Part shown: piece after piece, positions 3,749 through 19,426 of the stretch
Layout of the letters: every line of letters starts with the position of its first letter
How positions within the stretch are numbered: position 1 is the first letter of the stretch
Source: a virus
Length of the DNA stretch: 64,000 bases
IMG/VR virus record: IMGVR_UViG_3300027800_000004
Span: 12,345 to 76,344 of that record
Strand: one strand, 5' to 3'
Made by a program: the position numbers and the translations under genes
Notes under the pieces: model-generated
Told to the model about the DNA's origin: nothing
Database searches by the model: none
The model's input: only the letters and a program-made list of their open reading frames with translations

Positions 3749-5389
3749 CTATTGTTCAAGGGCCTTGAATAGATCCTCGGTGGTTTTCGTTTTATCCTCA
3801 AACAAATTATTGATTTTGGACGTACTATTCAACTGTGTCTCCATATCATTGATGTACTTGTCATACGGGGTCCAATCTTGCTTATTCTCTTTTGCTGCCG
3901 TAAAGAGATCCTGTTTTACCTCATCATAAGGTACAATGGATGTTTCTGTATAAGACTGCGTTCTTCCAGAGGAATCTGGCATGTAAATATTGAATTGATC
4001 TCCCAACGATGCTGCCTGTCCTTCCTTGACCTGTTTGTACGACAATCCAAAGTGAATGTATGGTTTGTACTGTATCTGGTGAGGCGGAGCCATGCCCTGT
4101 TCCCTGGCACTGGCGTTCTCAAGTCTTATCTGCTCAAGAACATGCAATGGTATCCTCTCACCTGGCTTGATTGTCTCGGTAATCATCTCCGTACCCCTGG
4201 GATCCTTGACCTTTATTGCCATTGCTTTTGTGGCAACCGGGTACATGTTTGCCTCTACCGGAACTGCCGGGATTGCCTTGCCCTTGCCTTCTACCTGGCC
4301 GGTGATAGCATTTATGTTATTGGCAGAACCCATGATAGTTATGTTCTTAAACCCAAAGGTTGCTGCAATAGGTATGCGTCCAACACCCTCATAGGGTACA
4401 ACTTTGTCACCACTCTTGCTTGATGTGTTGTAGTAGATATCCCTGACCTGCGGTTGGACAGGGTAATTGCCCGTAGTATCTTTCTCTGGAATACCATAGC
4501 CGGCTCCCATACCCCCTGTTCCGGAAATCCCCTGCTCATAACCTTTCTTTACCGGATATTCTGGACCGTAATTCTGCATGATCCAATCCTCTTTGTTCAT
4601 CACTCCCTTTTCCGGATCGGCCTCAAACATCTTATCTACGGCATTCTTTATGTTTGTAGGTGCGGCCTTATATGCCTTGAGGATACCGGCTTTTGCTCTT
4701 GCAGGATCAACACCTTCCCAGGTTGACTTGCCCCATTTACCAGTAGTCTCGTCAATAATAAATCTACTGACGGTCTTATCTGTGCCAGGAACAAATTTCG
4801 GTATAGCCGCTTGAAAATATTTACCGGCATCCACCGGCCTTGCCTTACCAACAATAAGTTCTTTTGACAACGGACTTCTTCCAAGAACGCCACCCTCTGC
4901 TTTCATCCATTTATCAATCTGTTCCTGTGTTGCATTAATGTCAATGTCTCTCTCTTCTTCTGGTTTCCCGGCCTGTTGATTTATTATTTTTTCAACATCG
5001 CCAATCGTTGCTTTCTCCTGCTGCCAGACATCGTGTTTCTGTTTAATGTCTGCCAACTTTGTTCTGAATGCTTTTGCAATCTTCCTCTCTGCTCCGCTGG
5101 AAGGATCGTAGATGTTATATCCTTTACTTCCAAGTTCTACATATTGATCTTTAAGATTTTCAAGTTCACCACTTATCTCATCATAGCCCTGCTGATCTTC
5201 CCATCCCTTGATGTCAAGGTCAATGAGTTTCTTCCCGGCCTCAAAGTCCTTATCTCTTTTTTCCTTGAGTGCCTGACCATATTGTAGCCTTTCAAGCCGT
5301 ACTCTTTGTACTGCCTGTACCGGATCGTATGATGATGGCCCGAAAAATGGTGCCGCTACAAAGCCGGGATCTATTTTACCGTTTGCCAT
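3749..5389 (-). CDS. Putative ejected/internal virion protein (546 aa)
   Basis: Long ORF with a helical, charged N-terminal half; lies downstream of the muzzle and the small cargo gene. Confidence 0.6.
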   Translation of the reverse strand: MANGKIDPGFVAAPFFGPSSYDPVQAVQRVRLERLQYGQALKEKRDKDFEAGKKLIDLDIKGWEDQQGYDEISGELENLKDQYVELGSKGYNIYDPSSGAERKIAKAFRTKLADIKQKHDVWQQEKATIGDVEKIINQQAGKPEEERDIDINATQEQIDKWMKAEGGVLGRSPLSKELIVGKARPVDAGKYFQAAIPKFVPGTDKTVSRFIIDETTGKWGKSTWEGVDPARAKAGILKAYKAAPTNIKNAVDKMFEADPEKGVMNKEDWIMQNYGPEYPVKKGYEQGISGTGGMGAGYGIPEKDTTGNYPVQPQVRDIYYNTSSKSGDKVVPYEGVGRIPIAATFGFKNITIMGSANNINAITGQVEGKGKAIPAVPVEANMYPVATKAMAIKVKDPRGTEMITETIKPGERIPLHVLEQIRLENASAREQGMAPPHQIQYKPYIHFGLSYKQVKEGQAASLGDQFNIYMPDSSGRTQSYTETSIVPYDEVKQDLFTAAKENKQDWTPYDKYINDMETQLNSTSKINNLFEDKTKTTEDLFKALEQ

Positions 5390-5398
5390 TTCTATTAA

Positions 5399-6088
5399 TT
5401 ATTTAATTCCGAAAGCCGGAACATTAAGTGTTGTATTTTGCTTTTTGGTAATCTGAGCAATAATATCTGCCAAGTCTTTCTCGGAAACTGCTGATCCTCC
5501 TGTCCCTTTTCCTAATAATGAGGAAAGGATGTCCGTATTCTGCGTGGCAGTAGCAACGCCCCCGATATTCTTTACTGCCGCCATGACGTTCTGCCCACCG
5601 GACTCTCTCAATGCCTGTGCTGCCTGTGCTGCCTGTAAGTATGGCATTTCCTTATTCCAGTAGTCAACTCGTCTTTCTTCCTGATAAACTGGTCCCTGCA
5701 GAACATCCATGTACTGACCCTGTGCCTGGTATCTCTGCTGTGCTGCCTGTGCTGCCATCTGAGTATAGTTCTTTTGCTGACCAAGAACAAGTTTATCGAG
5801 CAATCCATAAGCCTCTGCACCGGATCCAAGTTGTGATGCTGCCCTCAGTCCTGATGCGGTTGCTCCGGCAATCTCATTGCGATAGATCTCCCCTCCGGGA
5901 ATATCCTGGTCAAGTTGACGGGCATAGGCATATCCCTGAAGGTCCTTTATGGACTGTGAGGTTGTTGCTTTTGGTCGGGGATATTGCTCTTCAAGTTTAT
6001 CTGCCTTCTTCTCCTGAAACGCACCCCAGATACCTTGTACTGCGGATGTCGCTGCCCCTATTAATGCTGCTATTGTTACTGGATCCAT
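5399..6088 (-). CDS. Putative ejection/cargo protein with Gly/Ala-rich hydrophobic N-terminus (229 aa)
   Basis: MDPVTIAALIGAATSAVQGIWG start and Ala/Gln-rich helices, typical of the podophage pilot/ejection gene that follows the stabilization protein. Confidence 0.65.
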   Translation of the reverse strand: MDPVTIAALIGAATSAVQGIWGAFQEKKADKLEEQYPRPKATTSQSIKDLQGYAYARQLDQDIPGGEIYRNEIAGATASGLRAASQLGSGAEAYGLLDKLVLGQQKNYTQMAAQAAQQRYQAQGQYMDVLQGPVYQEERRVDYWNKEMPYLQAAQAAQALRESGGQNVMAAVKNIGGVATATQNTDILSSLLGKGTGGSAVSEKDLADIIAQITKKQNTTLNVPAFGIK

Positions 6089-6100
6089 GATATTGTCTTT

Positions 6101-8779
6101 TTAGCCACTTCTTTCACTGTCTGTTGATAAAACTATTACTGAGTAAATCCTTACTTTTTCATCGTGTTCCTCCGTTCTCAATCTTACATAGCAATATCTT
6201 CCTCTTATCTCTCTCCCGTTCATCGTCCTGGCGTTCATTGTTGCAAAGTTACCAGGACTATTCTCATCCTTGAGTATTCTGCCATAATAAATGCCCTCCG
6301 ACTTATTCCAAACAGCAACATACGTTTCCATAAGCACATAAGAGGCTTCATAGGGAATTAGGATATATCTGCTATTGCAATCAAACTGATGATCGGCATA
6401 GACGGCTAGAGAATTGAAAACCTTATTCTTTTCAGGATTGACATTGCTGACAAACTGAACATCACCTACCGTTGGAACCTTTGCCCATTCAAGCCAACCC
6501 TGTCCCTCATCCACATTCATTATGTAAAGTTTCTGACGATACATGTGGGCAAACCATATTCCCAGATGAACATAAGATTCTGTCTGTTGATCTATCCTGG
6601 TTATCCACCGGCCATGATGTTCGCTGAAGATCGCTCCCCAGACTACTCCGTTCATGTTCCAGTTAACCCAGATCTCATTATGCTCTACATTGGCACCAGA
6701 ATTAACCAGTAATAAGCGAGATCCACCTTGAAGCGTTATCCATGCTGAAAGATCCCGGAACCATCTCTTCATCTTATAGTCAGAGATAGGTAGTTGTCCA
6801 TTGGGTGCTGAACGTATGTATTTACCTTCGCTATTATCCCAATAATACAAGTTCCTATCATTAACCAAAACACTGTCCGGGTGCTGGCAGCCATAATTTG
6901 TTGACTCTTCCCTTGATGTGCCAAGAAGATTCTGAACCAAAGTGTAATTGCTTAATCCTCCATCGGCACTGAATGTCTGCACCCTGTTGATATAGATGCT
7001 TGTTTCTTTGTACATCTGAAGGACCTTGAGAGTAAATCCTATTTCTCTCAATGCAGTTATGTCTCCATTCTTTCTTGGTAAATCAACAAAGTCATTATAC
7101 ATGAATAGGGCAATATTGTTTACCTGAGTACCCTCAAGCAGTCTGCCTCCGTTTCTTATTCTCTCATGCAATGCTACCTGTTGCTGACTCACATCCCATA
7201 AGAATGGCCAACCCTGAGAGGTTAAGGCTGTCTGAAGATCCCACCAGTCACTCGGAGCAATGCTTTCTGCATAAAATGGCACTACGTTTACCGTTCCGGA
7301 TTCATAGTTCAGTCTGAAATACTTCCAGCAATCATTGGCTGTATTAAATATCTGTGCCTTTGTTGTGGTATTTCCATAAAGATCTATTACTTGGTCTATG
7401 TCTCCTTTATGATATTTATTGCCATTTGCGTCAATACCTATCTCAAAGACCATCCCTGTACCATAGAATATGGTTGTTCCCAGACCTTTTCGTGGCCTAT
7501 AAACTTCTACGAGAATATCATTTGCACCCTCAACCCATTCCGTAGGGGCATTTACGGCCTGTACGATAAGCCACTCGCCTCCAACCGCATCACCATACAT
7601 GGTACTGGTTCTCTCAATCTCATAATCGAAGTTTTCCTCAAATTCCGTAACATCACCAGAACCAGTATCTATTGTGCCGATAAGCCTTAATCTATCTCCA
7701 TGCTCCCATATATAGTCAGGAACTTTCCATCGGAGATTATTAATTCTTGTTTCATCCAAGGTATCCTGAATCATTACTGCCCATCTGTCATGAGTAAGAT
7801 CCTTGATGTCATTGATCCTAATCTGAAGGAAATAATCCATAGATATATTTCCGGAATAAACAATCTCGTAAGTTGTTGCCCAATCCGGGGGCCGGTGATT
7901 TATGTTAAAAGTGAGATAAGCAATAGTTGTTGTAAGAACATCCGGTAATCCATTTGGATTACCTTTCATATACCAGGGCAAATAAATATCGAAGTCATCT
8001 GTCTTAATGACTGAGCATCTTCTTGCTATTTCATCTTTATATACAAGTCCAAAGCCATGAACTGCACCATACTTCAATACTGGATACTTTGTGACAGTTC
8101 CATAAGAAGTGTAATATGCGCTAACCTCATAGCCATAATCCGGGAAAACATCAGTAAAGTTTCCTTCGCTTGGTGGTGGAAATGTATGATAAACTCTATC
8201 TAATGGCCAGAAATCAAGCCAGAATGGATATACAACCGGATCTGCATCTGAAGTTACTCTTGAGGGTCCCCAATTAGGATGAGCCAACATTGCAGCGTTT
8301 AGACCTACCGTCACATCATACCAGTTGTCTCCTGCTTGGGCCACATAAGATACAATATATGCGATGTCATTCTTTGTATCATCAACTCTTAGATAATAAA
8401 CATCACCGGAAGTAACAGGATTTGGTATAAGAACATGGGCGGAGACATAAAATCGAGTGTTTCTTGTTATTTCTCCTCCTGGCGTTGGATCCCAAGAATA
8501 TGGAGGTTTTCTTTGTGAAATATAAACATCCAGATTAATCGTGGTAAAATCTACTGATATGTCCGAATAATCAACATCAACCGACATATCTGGCTTAATA
8601 GTATCATACCCTTCAGTTATCTTTCCAAATACAACCGCATTGCCGGATATCAACTCCATGTGTCCAGCTTTTATTGGCACATAGGTAAAGGGTATGGCTA
8701 TCGCTTCGGCAGCGATTTGTTCTTTAATCCTGTCGTTGTAAAACTTTATGTCAATATCTTGATTATGTCCGTAAAGCAT
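6101..8779 (-). CDS. Tail stabilization (muzzle, P22 gp10-like) protein, C-terminal fragment (892 aa)
   Basis: Starts mid-domain (KFYND...VPIKAGHMELISGNAVVFGKITEGYD), followed by FGLVYKDEIARR, NGDITALRE, YGCQHPDSV, YYWDNSEGK, KNKVFNSLAV and NGREIRGRY motifs typical of crAss-like stabilization proteins. Confidence 0.8.
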   Translation of the reverse strand: MLYGHNQDIDIKFYNDRIKEQIAAEAIAIPFTYVPIKAGHMELISGNAVVFGKITEGYDTIKPDMSVDVDYSDISVDFTTINLDVYISQRKPPYSWDPTPGGEITRNTRFYVSAHVLIPNPVTSGDVYYLRVDDTKNDIAYIVSYVAQAGDNWYDVTVGLNAAMLAHPNWGPSRVTSDADPVVYPFWLDFWPLDRVYHTFPPPSEGNFTDVFPDYGYEVSAYYTSYGTVTKYPVLKYGAVHGFGLVYKDEIARRCSVIKTDDFDIYLPWYMKGNPNGLPDVLTTTIAYLTFNINHRPPDWATTYEIVYSGNISMDYFLQIRINDIKDLTHDRWAVMIQDTLDETRINNLRWKVPDYIWEHGDRLRLIGTIDTGSGDVTEFEENFDYEIERTSTMYGDAVGGEWLIVQAVNAPTEWVEGANDILVEVYRPRKGLGTTIFYGTGMVFEIGIDANGNKYHKGDIDQVIDLYGNTTTKAQIFNTANDCWKYFRLNYESGTVNVVPFYAESIAPSDWWDLQTALTSQGWPFLWDVSQQQVALHERIRNGGRLLEGTQVNNIALFMYNDFVDLPRKNGDITALREIGFTLKVLQMYKETSIYINRVQTFSADGGLSNYTLVQNLLGTSREESTNYGCQHPDSVLVNDRNLYYWDNSEGKYIRSAPNGQLPISDYKMKRWFRDLSAWITLQGGSRLLLVNSGANVEHNEIWVNWNMNGVVWGAIFSEHHGRWITRIDQQTESYVHLGIWFAHMYRQKLYIMNVDEGQGWLEWAKVPTVGDVQFVSNVNPEKNKVFNSLAVYADHQFDCNSRYILIPYEASYVLMETYVAVWNKSEGIYYGRILKDENSPGNFATMNARTMNGREIRGRYCYVRLRTEEHDEKVRIYSVIVLSTDSERSG

Positions 8780-8786
8780 CTGACAT

Positions 8787-9212
8787 TTAACTTACATAGA
8801 TTATCCCAAGTGAGTTCCATTCTATCGTTGAAGTGCCGTTTGTGACAATCTGGTTAGTGGTAAAATCAATGATACATCTTATTGGAGATGTTGACAAACT
8901 TCCTCCTACAAACGCATAGACACATCCATAGCGGTAACTTAGTGTTGCCGAAGGACCTATAACAACATTGGCCGCATCGAGGAAAGCATTGTTCCCATCA
9001 TAGGATTGCACTCTTCCGGTAATAGGCATACCTTCTACTGGATAAGGTCCACTGGCTGCGATCCTCCTGTCTACAACACCACTCTGTCCTGCGAATTGGT
9101 GTTGTGCGGGATCGGGTGTATATTGGTCATTAAGAAGCATAAGTCTTAAATCTTCTGCTACCCAGGCATCAACTATTGCCTTTTTTACAAATCTTGGTAC
9201 TACGCTTGCCAT
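8787..9212 (-). CDS. Small tail-associated structural protein (141 aa)
   Basis: Pattern DLRLMLL...FLDAANV...IIDF...NGTSTIEWNSLGII seen in small phage tail/fibre-attachment proteins. Confidence 0.55.
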   Translation of the reverse strand: MASVVPRFVKKAIVDAWVAEDLRLMLLNDQYTPDPAQHQFAGQSGVVDRRIAASGPYPVEGMPITGRVQSYDGNNAFLDAANVVIGPSATLSYRYGCVYAFVGGSLSTSPIRCIIDFTTNQIVTNGTSTIEWNSLGIIYVS

Positions 9213-9228
9213 GATATTTCGTTTTTAA

Positions 9229-18857: not shown

Positions 18858-19426
18858 TTTATTGTGAATGTATCATTATCGCTAACCCATGTAATCACTC
18901 TTCCACCATATCCGGTAGTGGCATGTGCAGGAGAGGTCCATGTCAGCATCATCTTTTCATTATATTGATTATCTGATCTCAGACTGTCCGGTACTGAACT
19001 CCAATCATAATTGGCATCAAAAAATGCCTCTTGCTCCGCTACCATTTTGTCTGCCTGATCGTACATATTATTTATCTTGATCCAATTATCAGCAAGTAAA
19101 TCTCCGGTAGGAGTAATTACGGGTGGTTGTGAATCTTTTGCTGTTACCGTAAAACTAACTTCACTAAAATTATTAAATGCGTCCGTCGCTCTAATCACTA
19201 CCGTAACCACAGGATTTGTAATGCTCAAAATAGTGCCAGGAGCCGGTGTCTGAACCACGCTCTTAATGCTACAATTATCGGTCACAATAACCATTGGTAC
19301 ATAGTTAGGTAGTGGAGCTTCACAATTTGCCCCAACCATAACATACTGTGGAGGTATCTGCGAAAGCAGACATGTACAACTGCTTGCAAGAAGCATAACC
19401 GCAAAAAGAATTGTTAGTTTTTTCAT
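18854..19426 (-). CDS. Putative lipoprotein with an HYR/Ig-like domain (190 aa)
   Basis: Lipobox-like LLASSC; VTDNCS...VVQTPAPGT...ATDAFNN...FTVT..D..PPVI matches an HYR-type repeat. Confidence 0.65.
   Translation of the reverse strand: MKKLTILFAVMLLASSCTCLLSQIPPQYVMVGANCEAPLPNYVPMVIVTDNCSIKSVVQTPAPGTILSITNPVVTVVIRATDAFNNFSEVSFTVTAKDSQPPVITPTGDLLADNWIKINNMYDQADKMVAEQEAFFDANYDWSSVPDSLRSDNQYNEKMMLTWTSPAHATTGYGGRVITWVSDNDTFTIK

Follow-up and report, generated by a model that had tools for sequence, protein, structure and literature searches.

In the window analysed here, a 64,000-nucleotide stretch of viral DNA (positions 12,345 to 76,344 of IMG/VR record IMGVR_UViG_3300027800_000004), our comparisons support the conclusion that the muzzle, a hallmark tail-tip protein of crassviruses, is encoded by three separate genes whose borders cut through domains. 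The three genes belong to a run of five intact, closely packed open reading frames (ORFs) on the minus strand, named A to E in order, and are preceded by the gene of a 258-aa (amino acid) virion protein. Judged from the sequences, it is highly probable that they encode a working crAss-type muzzle built from three polypeptides, a plug-in tail, and not a broken gene. The ORFs and their parts are listed below with the evidence used to delimit them; gp44 is the muzzle of crAss001. We write A' and B' for the A- and B-type chains of the related loci.

13209..15209, minus strand: ORF-A, 666 aa
15036..15209, minus strand: muzzle N-terminal segment, ORF-A aa 1-58, about gp44 residues 1-58 (BLASTP, family profile against gp44)
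14580..15020, minus strand: N-terminal four-fifths of a FISUMP (Fib_succ_major) domain, ORF-A aa 64-210 (PF09603, home-made hidden Markov model, HMM)
13212..14579, minus strand: variable cargo of ORF-A, aa 211-666, with a WGDG-motif stretch, leucine-rich repeats and a C-terminal domain (LRR_4, LRR_8)
13209-13211, minus strand: ORF-A stop codon
12022..13206, minus strand: ORF-B, 394 aa
13099..13206, minus strand: last two FISUMP strands, ORF-B aa 1-36, ending in the motif SVRLL (hhalign)
12205..13065, minus strand: second muzzle piece, ORF-B aa 48-334, about gp44 62-313, the first propeller blades and IG1 region (BLASTP, phrog_14478, hhalign)
12025..12204, minus strand: linker and start of a cargo module, ORF-B aa 335-394 (sequence read, comparison with locus L007)
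12022-12024, minus strand: ORF-B TAA stop, followed by a GCA codon and the ORF-C ATG in the same frame
9229..12018, minus strand: ORF-C, 929 aa
11089..12018, minus strand: first beta-helix-like domain, ORF-C aa 1-310 (paralogue of the 374-aa protein at 17733..18857)
9829..11064, minus strand: Pel9A-like right-handed beta-helix, ORF-C aa 319-730 (PF22842)
9232..9798, minus strand: BACON-like module and C-terminal beta domain, ORF-C aa 741-929 (homology to the C-terminal cargo of B' in relatives)
8787..9212, minus strand: gene D, 141 aa, putative small tail or fibre accessory protein (phrog_644, AlphaFold2 model, structural matches)
6101..8779, minus strand: ORF-E, 892 aa, the largest of the muzzle pieces and third in order, about gp44 318-1371, with IG2, crass domain, remaining blades and C-terminal domain (BLASTP, Foldseek, VIA, hhalign)

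An initial annotation, made from the sequence alone, had read the muzzle as three collinear ORF pieces, and ordered alignments to both a single-chain relative and gp44 confirm this for ORF-A aa 1-58, ORF-B aa 48-334 and the whole of ORF-E. On the database protein P0085, a single chain of 1288 aa, BLASTP places ORF-A aa 12-58 at residues 12-58 (E 9e-9), ORF-B aa 54-334 at 71-413 (E 9e-39) and ORF-E aa 3-891 at 407-1287 (E 4e-130). Since the pieces follow one another in order along P0085, the three-piece observation is correct. The profile of phrog_14478 ('virion structural protein', 1474 positions) is matched by ORF-B at 164-278 and by ORF-E at 964-1134. When ORF-E was used as a database query, about 80 clusters of 870-1066 aa came back. 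The majority of these (about 870-960 aa) span the whole of ORF-E, and the search also reached more distant proteins of 1100-1400 aa.

Descriptions of the crassvirus muzzle so far know it only as one chain, with about 1 MDa per hexamer (PMC10172136). Profile comparison with the crAss001 muzzle, one of the checks suggested in the initial annotation, reveals that both ends of the family are homologous to gp44 (sequence from MH675552): by hhalign, the N-terminal family profile aligns to gp44 1-313 (probability 95.7, E 1e-8) and the C-terminal part to 1054-1367 (probability 96.9, E 1.7e-10). The alignment of the middle (crass) region to gp44 is not significant (hhalign probability 2.7). The Pfam family crAss_MUZ_C (PF25729) scores 30.7 bits in the relative P0090 and 14 bits in ORF-E itself. 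Neither phmmer searches of ORF-A, ORF-B and ORF-E against PDB sequences nor a search of the PDB with the E-family profile gave a muzzle match, and the homology to gp44 appeared solely by hhalign and fold search. A tblastn search of 50,697 INPHARED phages with ORF-E and ORF-B returned nothing at 1e-5. In the fold search, the best Foldseek matches of the ORF-E model in the PDB are the crAss001 muzzle entries 7qol_P and 7qok_A (E 1e-6, with low TM-scores), and VIA superimposes model residues 56-887 on muzzle chain residues 318-1371 with a Z-score of 9.3 over 476 residues. The border between B and E maps to about gp44 residues 313-318, where IG2 enters propeller blade 3; in gp44, IG2 spans residues 318-1021 and is inserted in that blade (PMC10172136). 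With the border at the IG2 branch point of blade 3, the beta-propeller would therefore be shared between two chains.

The border between A and B falls inside another domain. The FISUMP family model PF09603 (TIGR02145) matches ORF-A aa 82-204 with 65.8 bits (cut-off 33.9), covering profile positions 1-153 of 187. An HMM built from 23 complete FISUMP copies taken from this set of proteins matches the ORF-A part at positions 21-159 when run against the A-type proteins, and in more than 50 B' proteins it matches with positions 160-192, always at B' residues 3-36. When the B' N-termini (aa 1-36) are aligned as a profile with the complete copies, hhalign places them on columns 162-197 of 197 (probability 89.9, P 2e-7); four other segments of B, used as controls, give P values above 0.66. 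The motif SVRLIKD at the start of B' corresponds to the terminal SVRC-K/R-D of the FISUMP family. Pfam finds no match on ORF-B aa 1-60 alone, and phmmer with single B' N-termini against A' proteins gives weak matches at consistent positions. On this profile evidence, the FISUMP domain is complete only across chains A and B. The initial annotation had placed a FISUMP domain within the muzzle, cut by PKD and leucine-rich repeats plus a stop; the split FISUMP domain and the repeats (LRR_4) stand, and Pfam finds no PKD domain in ORF-A.

Nature also provides forms in which A', cargo and B' are one chain: P0127, P0129, P0147 and P0131 (A 1-222, cargo, B). P0131 and locus L011 share a cargo end, …SAAKLC.DL…, which in P0131 runs straight into …AKYYSLAYNSAE… without a stop, and which in L011 is followed by a stop and then by MSLYAKILTLSYDSA…. 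Fused forms occur at no fewer than three places (at least 3) in a tree of the B core, and the fused P0131 is sister to the split P0136 with a support of 100. Because the fused forms are scattered in the tree, fission or re-fusion at the A'|B' point happened repeatedly. From the sequences, this repetition is the strongest indirect evidence that A' and B' still form one structure, and the covalent and non-covalent links between them appear interchangeable.

The split is not a peculiarity of this window. Scanning IMG/VR with an alignment as query recovered 29 related loci, or 30 counting the window (the same scan with a single protein query found none). The order A'-B'-D-E is present in 13 of these loci and the window, thus in 14 of 30; in the 13 other loci the proteins have 363-1107 aa (A'), 554-1226 aa (B'), 138-150 aa (D) and 880-1009 aa (E). 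Fifteen loci have an unsplit muzzle: downstream of the 258-aa gene, a single ORF of 1148-1324 aa contains both B-like and E-like parts. L014 is a sixteenth, with a single ORF of 1186 aa and a contig end before the upstream gene. These relatives lacking the inserts, the comparison proposed in the initial annotation, encode the muzzle in one ORF collinear with the pieces of the window. In the B core tree, the insert-bearing clade stands apart from the single-chain forms with 99% support in the Shimodaira-Hasegawa-like approximate likelihood ratio test (SH-aLRT). We found no split crassvirus muzzle in the literature searched.

These loci bear on the simplest alternative, that the window holds a recent pseudogene broken by insertions, whose pieces no longer cooperate. 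The stops do break a normally single gene, and the one between B and C is a single in-frame TAA that could be a recent nonsense change. Against decay, the genes of the 13 other loci are divided at the same points (A'|B' and B'|D|E), the split layout is conserved across these loci at 47-62% protein identity (about 50%), and all ORFs are intact; lengths fitting the split layout are found in about 80 protein clusters of the E type and about 50 of the B' type; in crAss001 the muzzle acts as an essential gatekeeper (PMC10172136). Further, the stops are confirmed by independent contigs of four runs. Positions 5000 to 16500 of the window are reproduced in Logan contigs from these freshwater metagenome runs, three of which may be the source of this DNA, without differences or indels and with agreeing stops. 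The first impression of intact, closely packed ORFs without signs of decay was accurate for all five, and we consider a decayed gene extremely unlikely.

What varies and what is kept in the split chains is equally informative. Conservation extends only over aa 1 to about 210 in A' and aa 1 to about 350-394 in B', and the most conserved parts of both are the muzzle-derived (and FISUMP) segments; the muzzle stretch aa 1-58 is kept in every A' protein. The cargo behind them differs between relatives: fn3 arrays, leucine-rich repeats, an extra complete FISUMP, Lcl_C, BACON, Ig-like domains and a Pel9A-like beta-helix are found on the A' and B' C-termini. At the position of the ORF-A cargo, relatives carry fn3, a second FISUMP or Lcl_C, and leucine-rich repeat proteins are among the PDB matches of ORF-A. 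The last ~70 aa of the ORF-A cargo (aa 601-666, 13212..13409) share 42% identity with the beginning of another ORF, far upstream in L011 (2-208), and look like a shuffled module.

Such chains might have taken on separate roles without reassembling, with E alone acting as the plug and A' and B' as ordinary fibres that use their muzzle segments as anchors elsewhere on the tail. E does account for roughly two thirds of the muzzle, the blades that bear the gate among them, and the cargo-bearing proteins behave like tail fibres. However, blades 1-2 and part of blade 3 are present only in B' according to the gp44 mapping (PMC10172136), so that E alone would be an open propeller. In addition, the low-confidence segments of the ORF-E model, 1-59 and 510-632, would be those expected to need contact with B', and it is the muzzle-derived parts of A' and B' that are most conserved. 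Division of labour of this kind thus seems unlikely, and reassembly of the three chains into one muzzle is the better account.

How the chains come together is constrained by the junctions. In the window, the ORF-A stop is followed by 2 nucleotides (nt) and the ORF-B ATG, the ORF-B TAA by GCA and the in-frame ORF-C ATG, and the stop of gene D by 7 nt and the ORF-E ATG. Over nine genomes the distance from A' to B' ranges from –19 to +9 nt in all three frames, and the B' to D and D to E distances also vary. The initial annotation had offered joining or bypassing at the RNA level as one hypothesis. Read-through, frameshifting, bypassing or splicing could act at least partially, for instance by read-through of the TAA to give a B-C fusion: B and C share a frame with only the TAA and one codon between them, and A' and B' are in frame in L002, L005 and L007. 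But the variable gaps and frames argue against read-through or bypass, and the muzzle parts of B and E are separated by the whole of gene D and by differing cargo (1.7-3.7 kb of B'). The window contains no tRNA genes and hence no suppressor tRNA, and every downstream ORF has its own ATG right at the junction (GTG in L004). Of the three stop codons, TAA is the one most rarely subject to read-through or reassignment. Altogether, a contribution of recoding is very unlikely.

Excision at the DNA level, the third hypothesis of the initial annotation, would mean that excisable or invertible cassettes leave a subpopulation with a restored single muzzle gene. In its favor, compared with P0085 about six residues occur twice at the borders, as AYETNT in B and as LYGHNQ in E. 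The direct repeat at the insert border is nevertheless absent from the 20 largest of 48 chance-level repeat families and is not above chance; no deletion joint or deletion form is seen in the contigs of the four runs, which drop rare variants; and the short duplication is common to the whole clade in consensus sequences and is thus old. Programmed rearrangement is, like decay, a most improbable explanation. Separate, interlocking chains, the first of the hypotheses, are favored by the sequence evidence: the layout is conserved across the clade, fused and split variants occur naturally, and the frames vary.

The window goes one step further than its relatives. In the closest of them, L007, the 584-aa B' corresponds to B 1-393 plus C 741-927; compared with it, the window has a stop, a start and about 740 aa inserted between B393 and C741. 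The window is alone in having the B' cargo as a gene of its own: ORF-C, set off from ORF-B by an in-frame TAA-GCA-ATG. The insert is composed of a paralogue of a secreted 374-aa protein and a Pel9A-like helix. ORF-C aa 4-316 is 47% identical to the 374-aa protein (E 7e-82). PF22842 matches ORF-C aa 319-629 with 63.5 bits (cut-off 25.2), and the helix is 34% identical to the cargo of P0156, where it is fused to B in one chain. From these matches, ORF-C aa 319-730 is likely a polysaccharide lyase or depolymerase.

The 374-aa ORF itself has a signal-peptide-like N-terminus, and ORF-C begins where the predicted mature part of this paralogue begins. A 190-aa ORF at 18854..19426 has a lipoprotein-like leader and overlaps the 374-aa ORF by ATGA. 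The same paralogue is found in L007, upstream of the tail genes.

The end of ORF-C is less clearly delimited. BACON (PF13004) scores 12.5 bits in ORF-C, below the cut-off of 25, and the module is therefore called BACON-like by homology to relatives only. The homologous cargo scores 29.9 bits in P0169, of which 414-586 aligns to C758-929, and 28.8 bits in the B' of L002. The break between B and C lies about 11 residues before the start of the Pfam BACON model in the relatives, and whether it cuts the BACON-like domain is uncertain. Of the initial proposal that a stop and a beta-helix interrupt a BACON-like domain, the stop and the ~740-aa insert hold up against L007, and the cutting of the domain does so only partly.

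Gene D goes hand in hand with the split. All split loci (14 of 14) have a single match to its family HMM, immediately before E, and none of the unsplit loci (0 of 15) has one. Gene D matches phrog_644 and belongs to a widespread family of ~140-aa proteins (279 clusters). Its AlphaFold2 model has a mean predicted local distance difference test (pLDDT) score of 94.8, and VIA relates it to small tail-tip, neck, baseplate and fibre proteins: the Bxb1 tail tip (Z 10.4), the Sf14 neck (Z 9.7), GP4 fibre I (8jou_a, Z 6.6) and an Agrobacterium 7-7-1 fibre (Z 6.5), followed by a drop to Z 3.9. BFVD also gives matches, the ESM Atlas provides PF23140 as a lead (0.87), and a Foldseek search of the PDB with the model returns nothing at or below 0.001. 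Gene D probably encodes an extra structural subunit docked at the B|E split site.

We propose the following sequence of events. In an ancestor of this clade of ~75-kb phages, two modules would have been inserted in frame into surface loops of a single-chain muzzle. The first would be a FISUMP lectin-like domain placed after about residue 58, which later gained cargo in its own last loop, and the second a linker and cargo at the point where IG2 branches off propeller blade 3. Stop and start codons would then have arisen at the distal end of each cargo. Three chains would result. A' would comprise muzzle residues 1-58, most of FISUMP and cargo; B' would begin with the two final FISUMP strands and continue with the first muzzle blades, the IG1 region, a linker and cargo; E would contain IG2 and the crass domain as well as the rest of the blades. 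Reassembly would be non-covalent: the FISUMP domain of A' would be completed by the strands of B', and B' together with E would presumably close the seven-bladed propeller. Each of the six muzzle subunits would offer two free C-termini carrying exchangeable receptor-binding or depolymerase modules. Gene D would have been acquired together with the B|E split. In the phage of the window, the B' cargo would have become the separate gene ORF-C, with two beta-helix domains and the old BACON-like end.

A further-reaching idea, which we hold tentatively and rate at somewhat under even chances, is that the muzzle serves as a plug-and-socket display platform. Split beta-domains would be its non-covalent connectors: A' and B' would be joined through FISUMP strands, B' and E through propeller blades, and B might be joined to ORF-C through a BACON-like strand. 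Receptor-binding and depolymerase cassettes could be swapped by recombination at two landing pads that leave the essential gatekeeper untouched, the link would flip repeatedly between covalent and non-covalent in evolution, and the gene D product would dimerize on the linker into fibres of the GP4/A1002 type.

Several points weigh against a three-chain muzzle. The gp44 domain mapping of the split points is based on remote alignments of 15-20% identity, and the ORF-E model is of moderate quality (pLDDT 62). The split status of database proteins that lack DNA context is deduced from called ORFs. Single B' N-termini match the FISUMP HMM weakly, with 0-8 bits; these matches are convincing because of the profile comparison and the constant register.

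Within ORF-B, phrog_20878 ('tail fiber protein') matches window positions 12628..12789 (aa 140-193). At this position relatives have weak CBM_5_12-like repeats, with extra copies in P0085, and the segment may be a carbohydrate-binding repeat inside the IG1 region. In ORF-E, some loci of the split clade (L008-L012; 4277-7252 in L008, 10001-13030 in L011) have longer proteins of 991-1009 aa, with about 100 aa extra near E residue 420 and a more divergent first half (38-41% identity). Judged by alignment, the extra stretch is a third variable site, within the crass-domain region. The 1030-1066-aa matches of the ORF-E database search fit this long-E pattern.

The gene before the muzzle is conserved in position and varies in form. 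The upstream 258-aa virion protein is encoded at 15209..15985 on the minus strand (phrog_13977, with a weak SU10_adaptor match). Its gene lies immediately 5' of the muzzle gene in split and unsplit relatives, a position kept in 27 loci. It is duplicated in tandem in L005 (3491-5134) and carries a ~100-aa insertion in L011 (4250-5329). An extra ORF of 214-270 aa is found 5' of A' in L002 (4775-5587), L003 and L023. PHROGs also identify the portal, large terminase and capsid protein in the window, and no PHROG matches the large ORFs located downstream of the muzzle. All sequencing runs containing this DNA are freshwater metagenomes.

If true, a clade with a three-piece muzzle and lectin and enzyme modules on its new C-termini would build host recognition directly into the gatekeeper. 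Natural fused and split pairs of one protein would be useful for studies of fragment complementation and gene fission, and the two recombination-tolerant sites could guide host-range engineering in laboratory phage-host pairs. There is also a warning for annotation, in that ORFs labelled 'tail fibre' can belong to the muzzle when they lie beside a short 'muzzle' gene.

Phage tail fibres and tailspikes are modular: a conserved N-terminal part anchors them, and the C-terminal receptor-binding or depolymerase domain can be exchanged. The window proteins resemble them in combining a conserved anchor with hypervariable distal modules (fn3, BACON, beta-helix lyase, leucine-rich repeats). They differ in that the anchors are pieces of the essential muzzle protein and of a split FISUMP domain, not dedicated adaptor domains.

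The muzzle gp44 of the Bacteroides phage crAss001 (PDB 7QOK, 7QOL; PMC10172136) shares profile homology at both ends with this family and is the best structural match of ORF-E. Length variation of the muzzle through insertions in the IG2 and crass regions has been described (PMC10172136). In contrast to the single 1371-aa chain of gp44, the window has three chains, with FISUMP and cargo inserts at about residues 58 and 315, plus the extra gene D. The 258-aa upstream protein also differs from crAss001 gp43, to which it has no BLASTP similarity.

By analogy, the closest known precedent is the split nozzle of the Pseudomonas podophage A1002, which consists of the 'nozzle-rope' gp39 and the 'nozzle-base' gp42; the genes of these two flank those of gp40 and gp41, which are small fibre proteins (PMC13730344). 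There too, the nozzle platform and propeller are shared by two polypeptides, one of which displays a fibre, and the genes between the halves encode ~140-170-aa proteins with the GP4 gp80 fold; gene D, with its match to GP4 fibre I, occupies the same relative position. A1002 belongs to an unrelated lineage, its halves are in swapped order and number two chains compared to three in the window, and they carry neither a split nested lectin domain nor enzymatic or lectin cargo. Its structure has been solved, whereas for the window we infer the arrangement.

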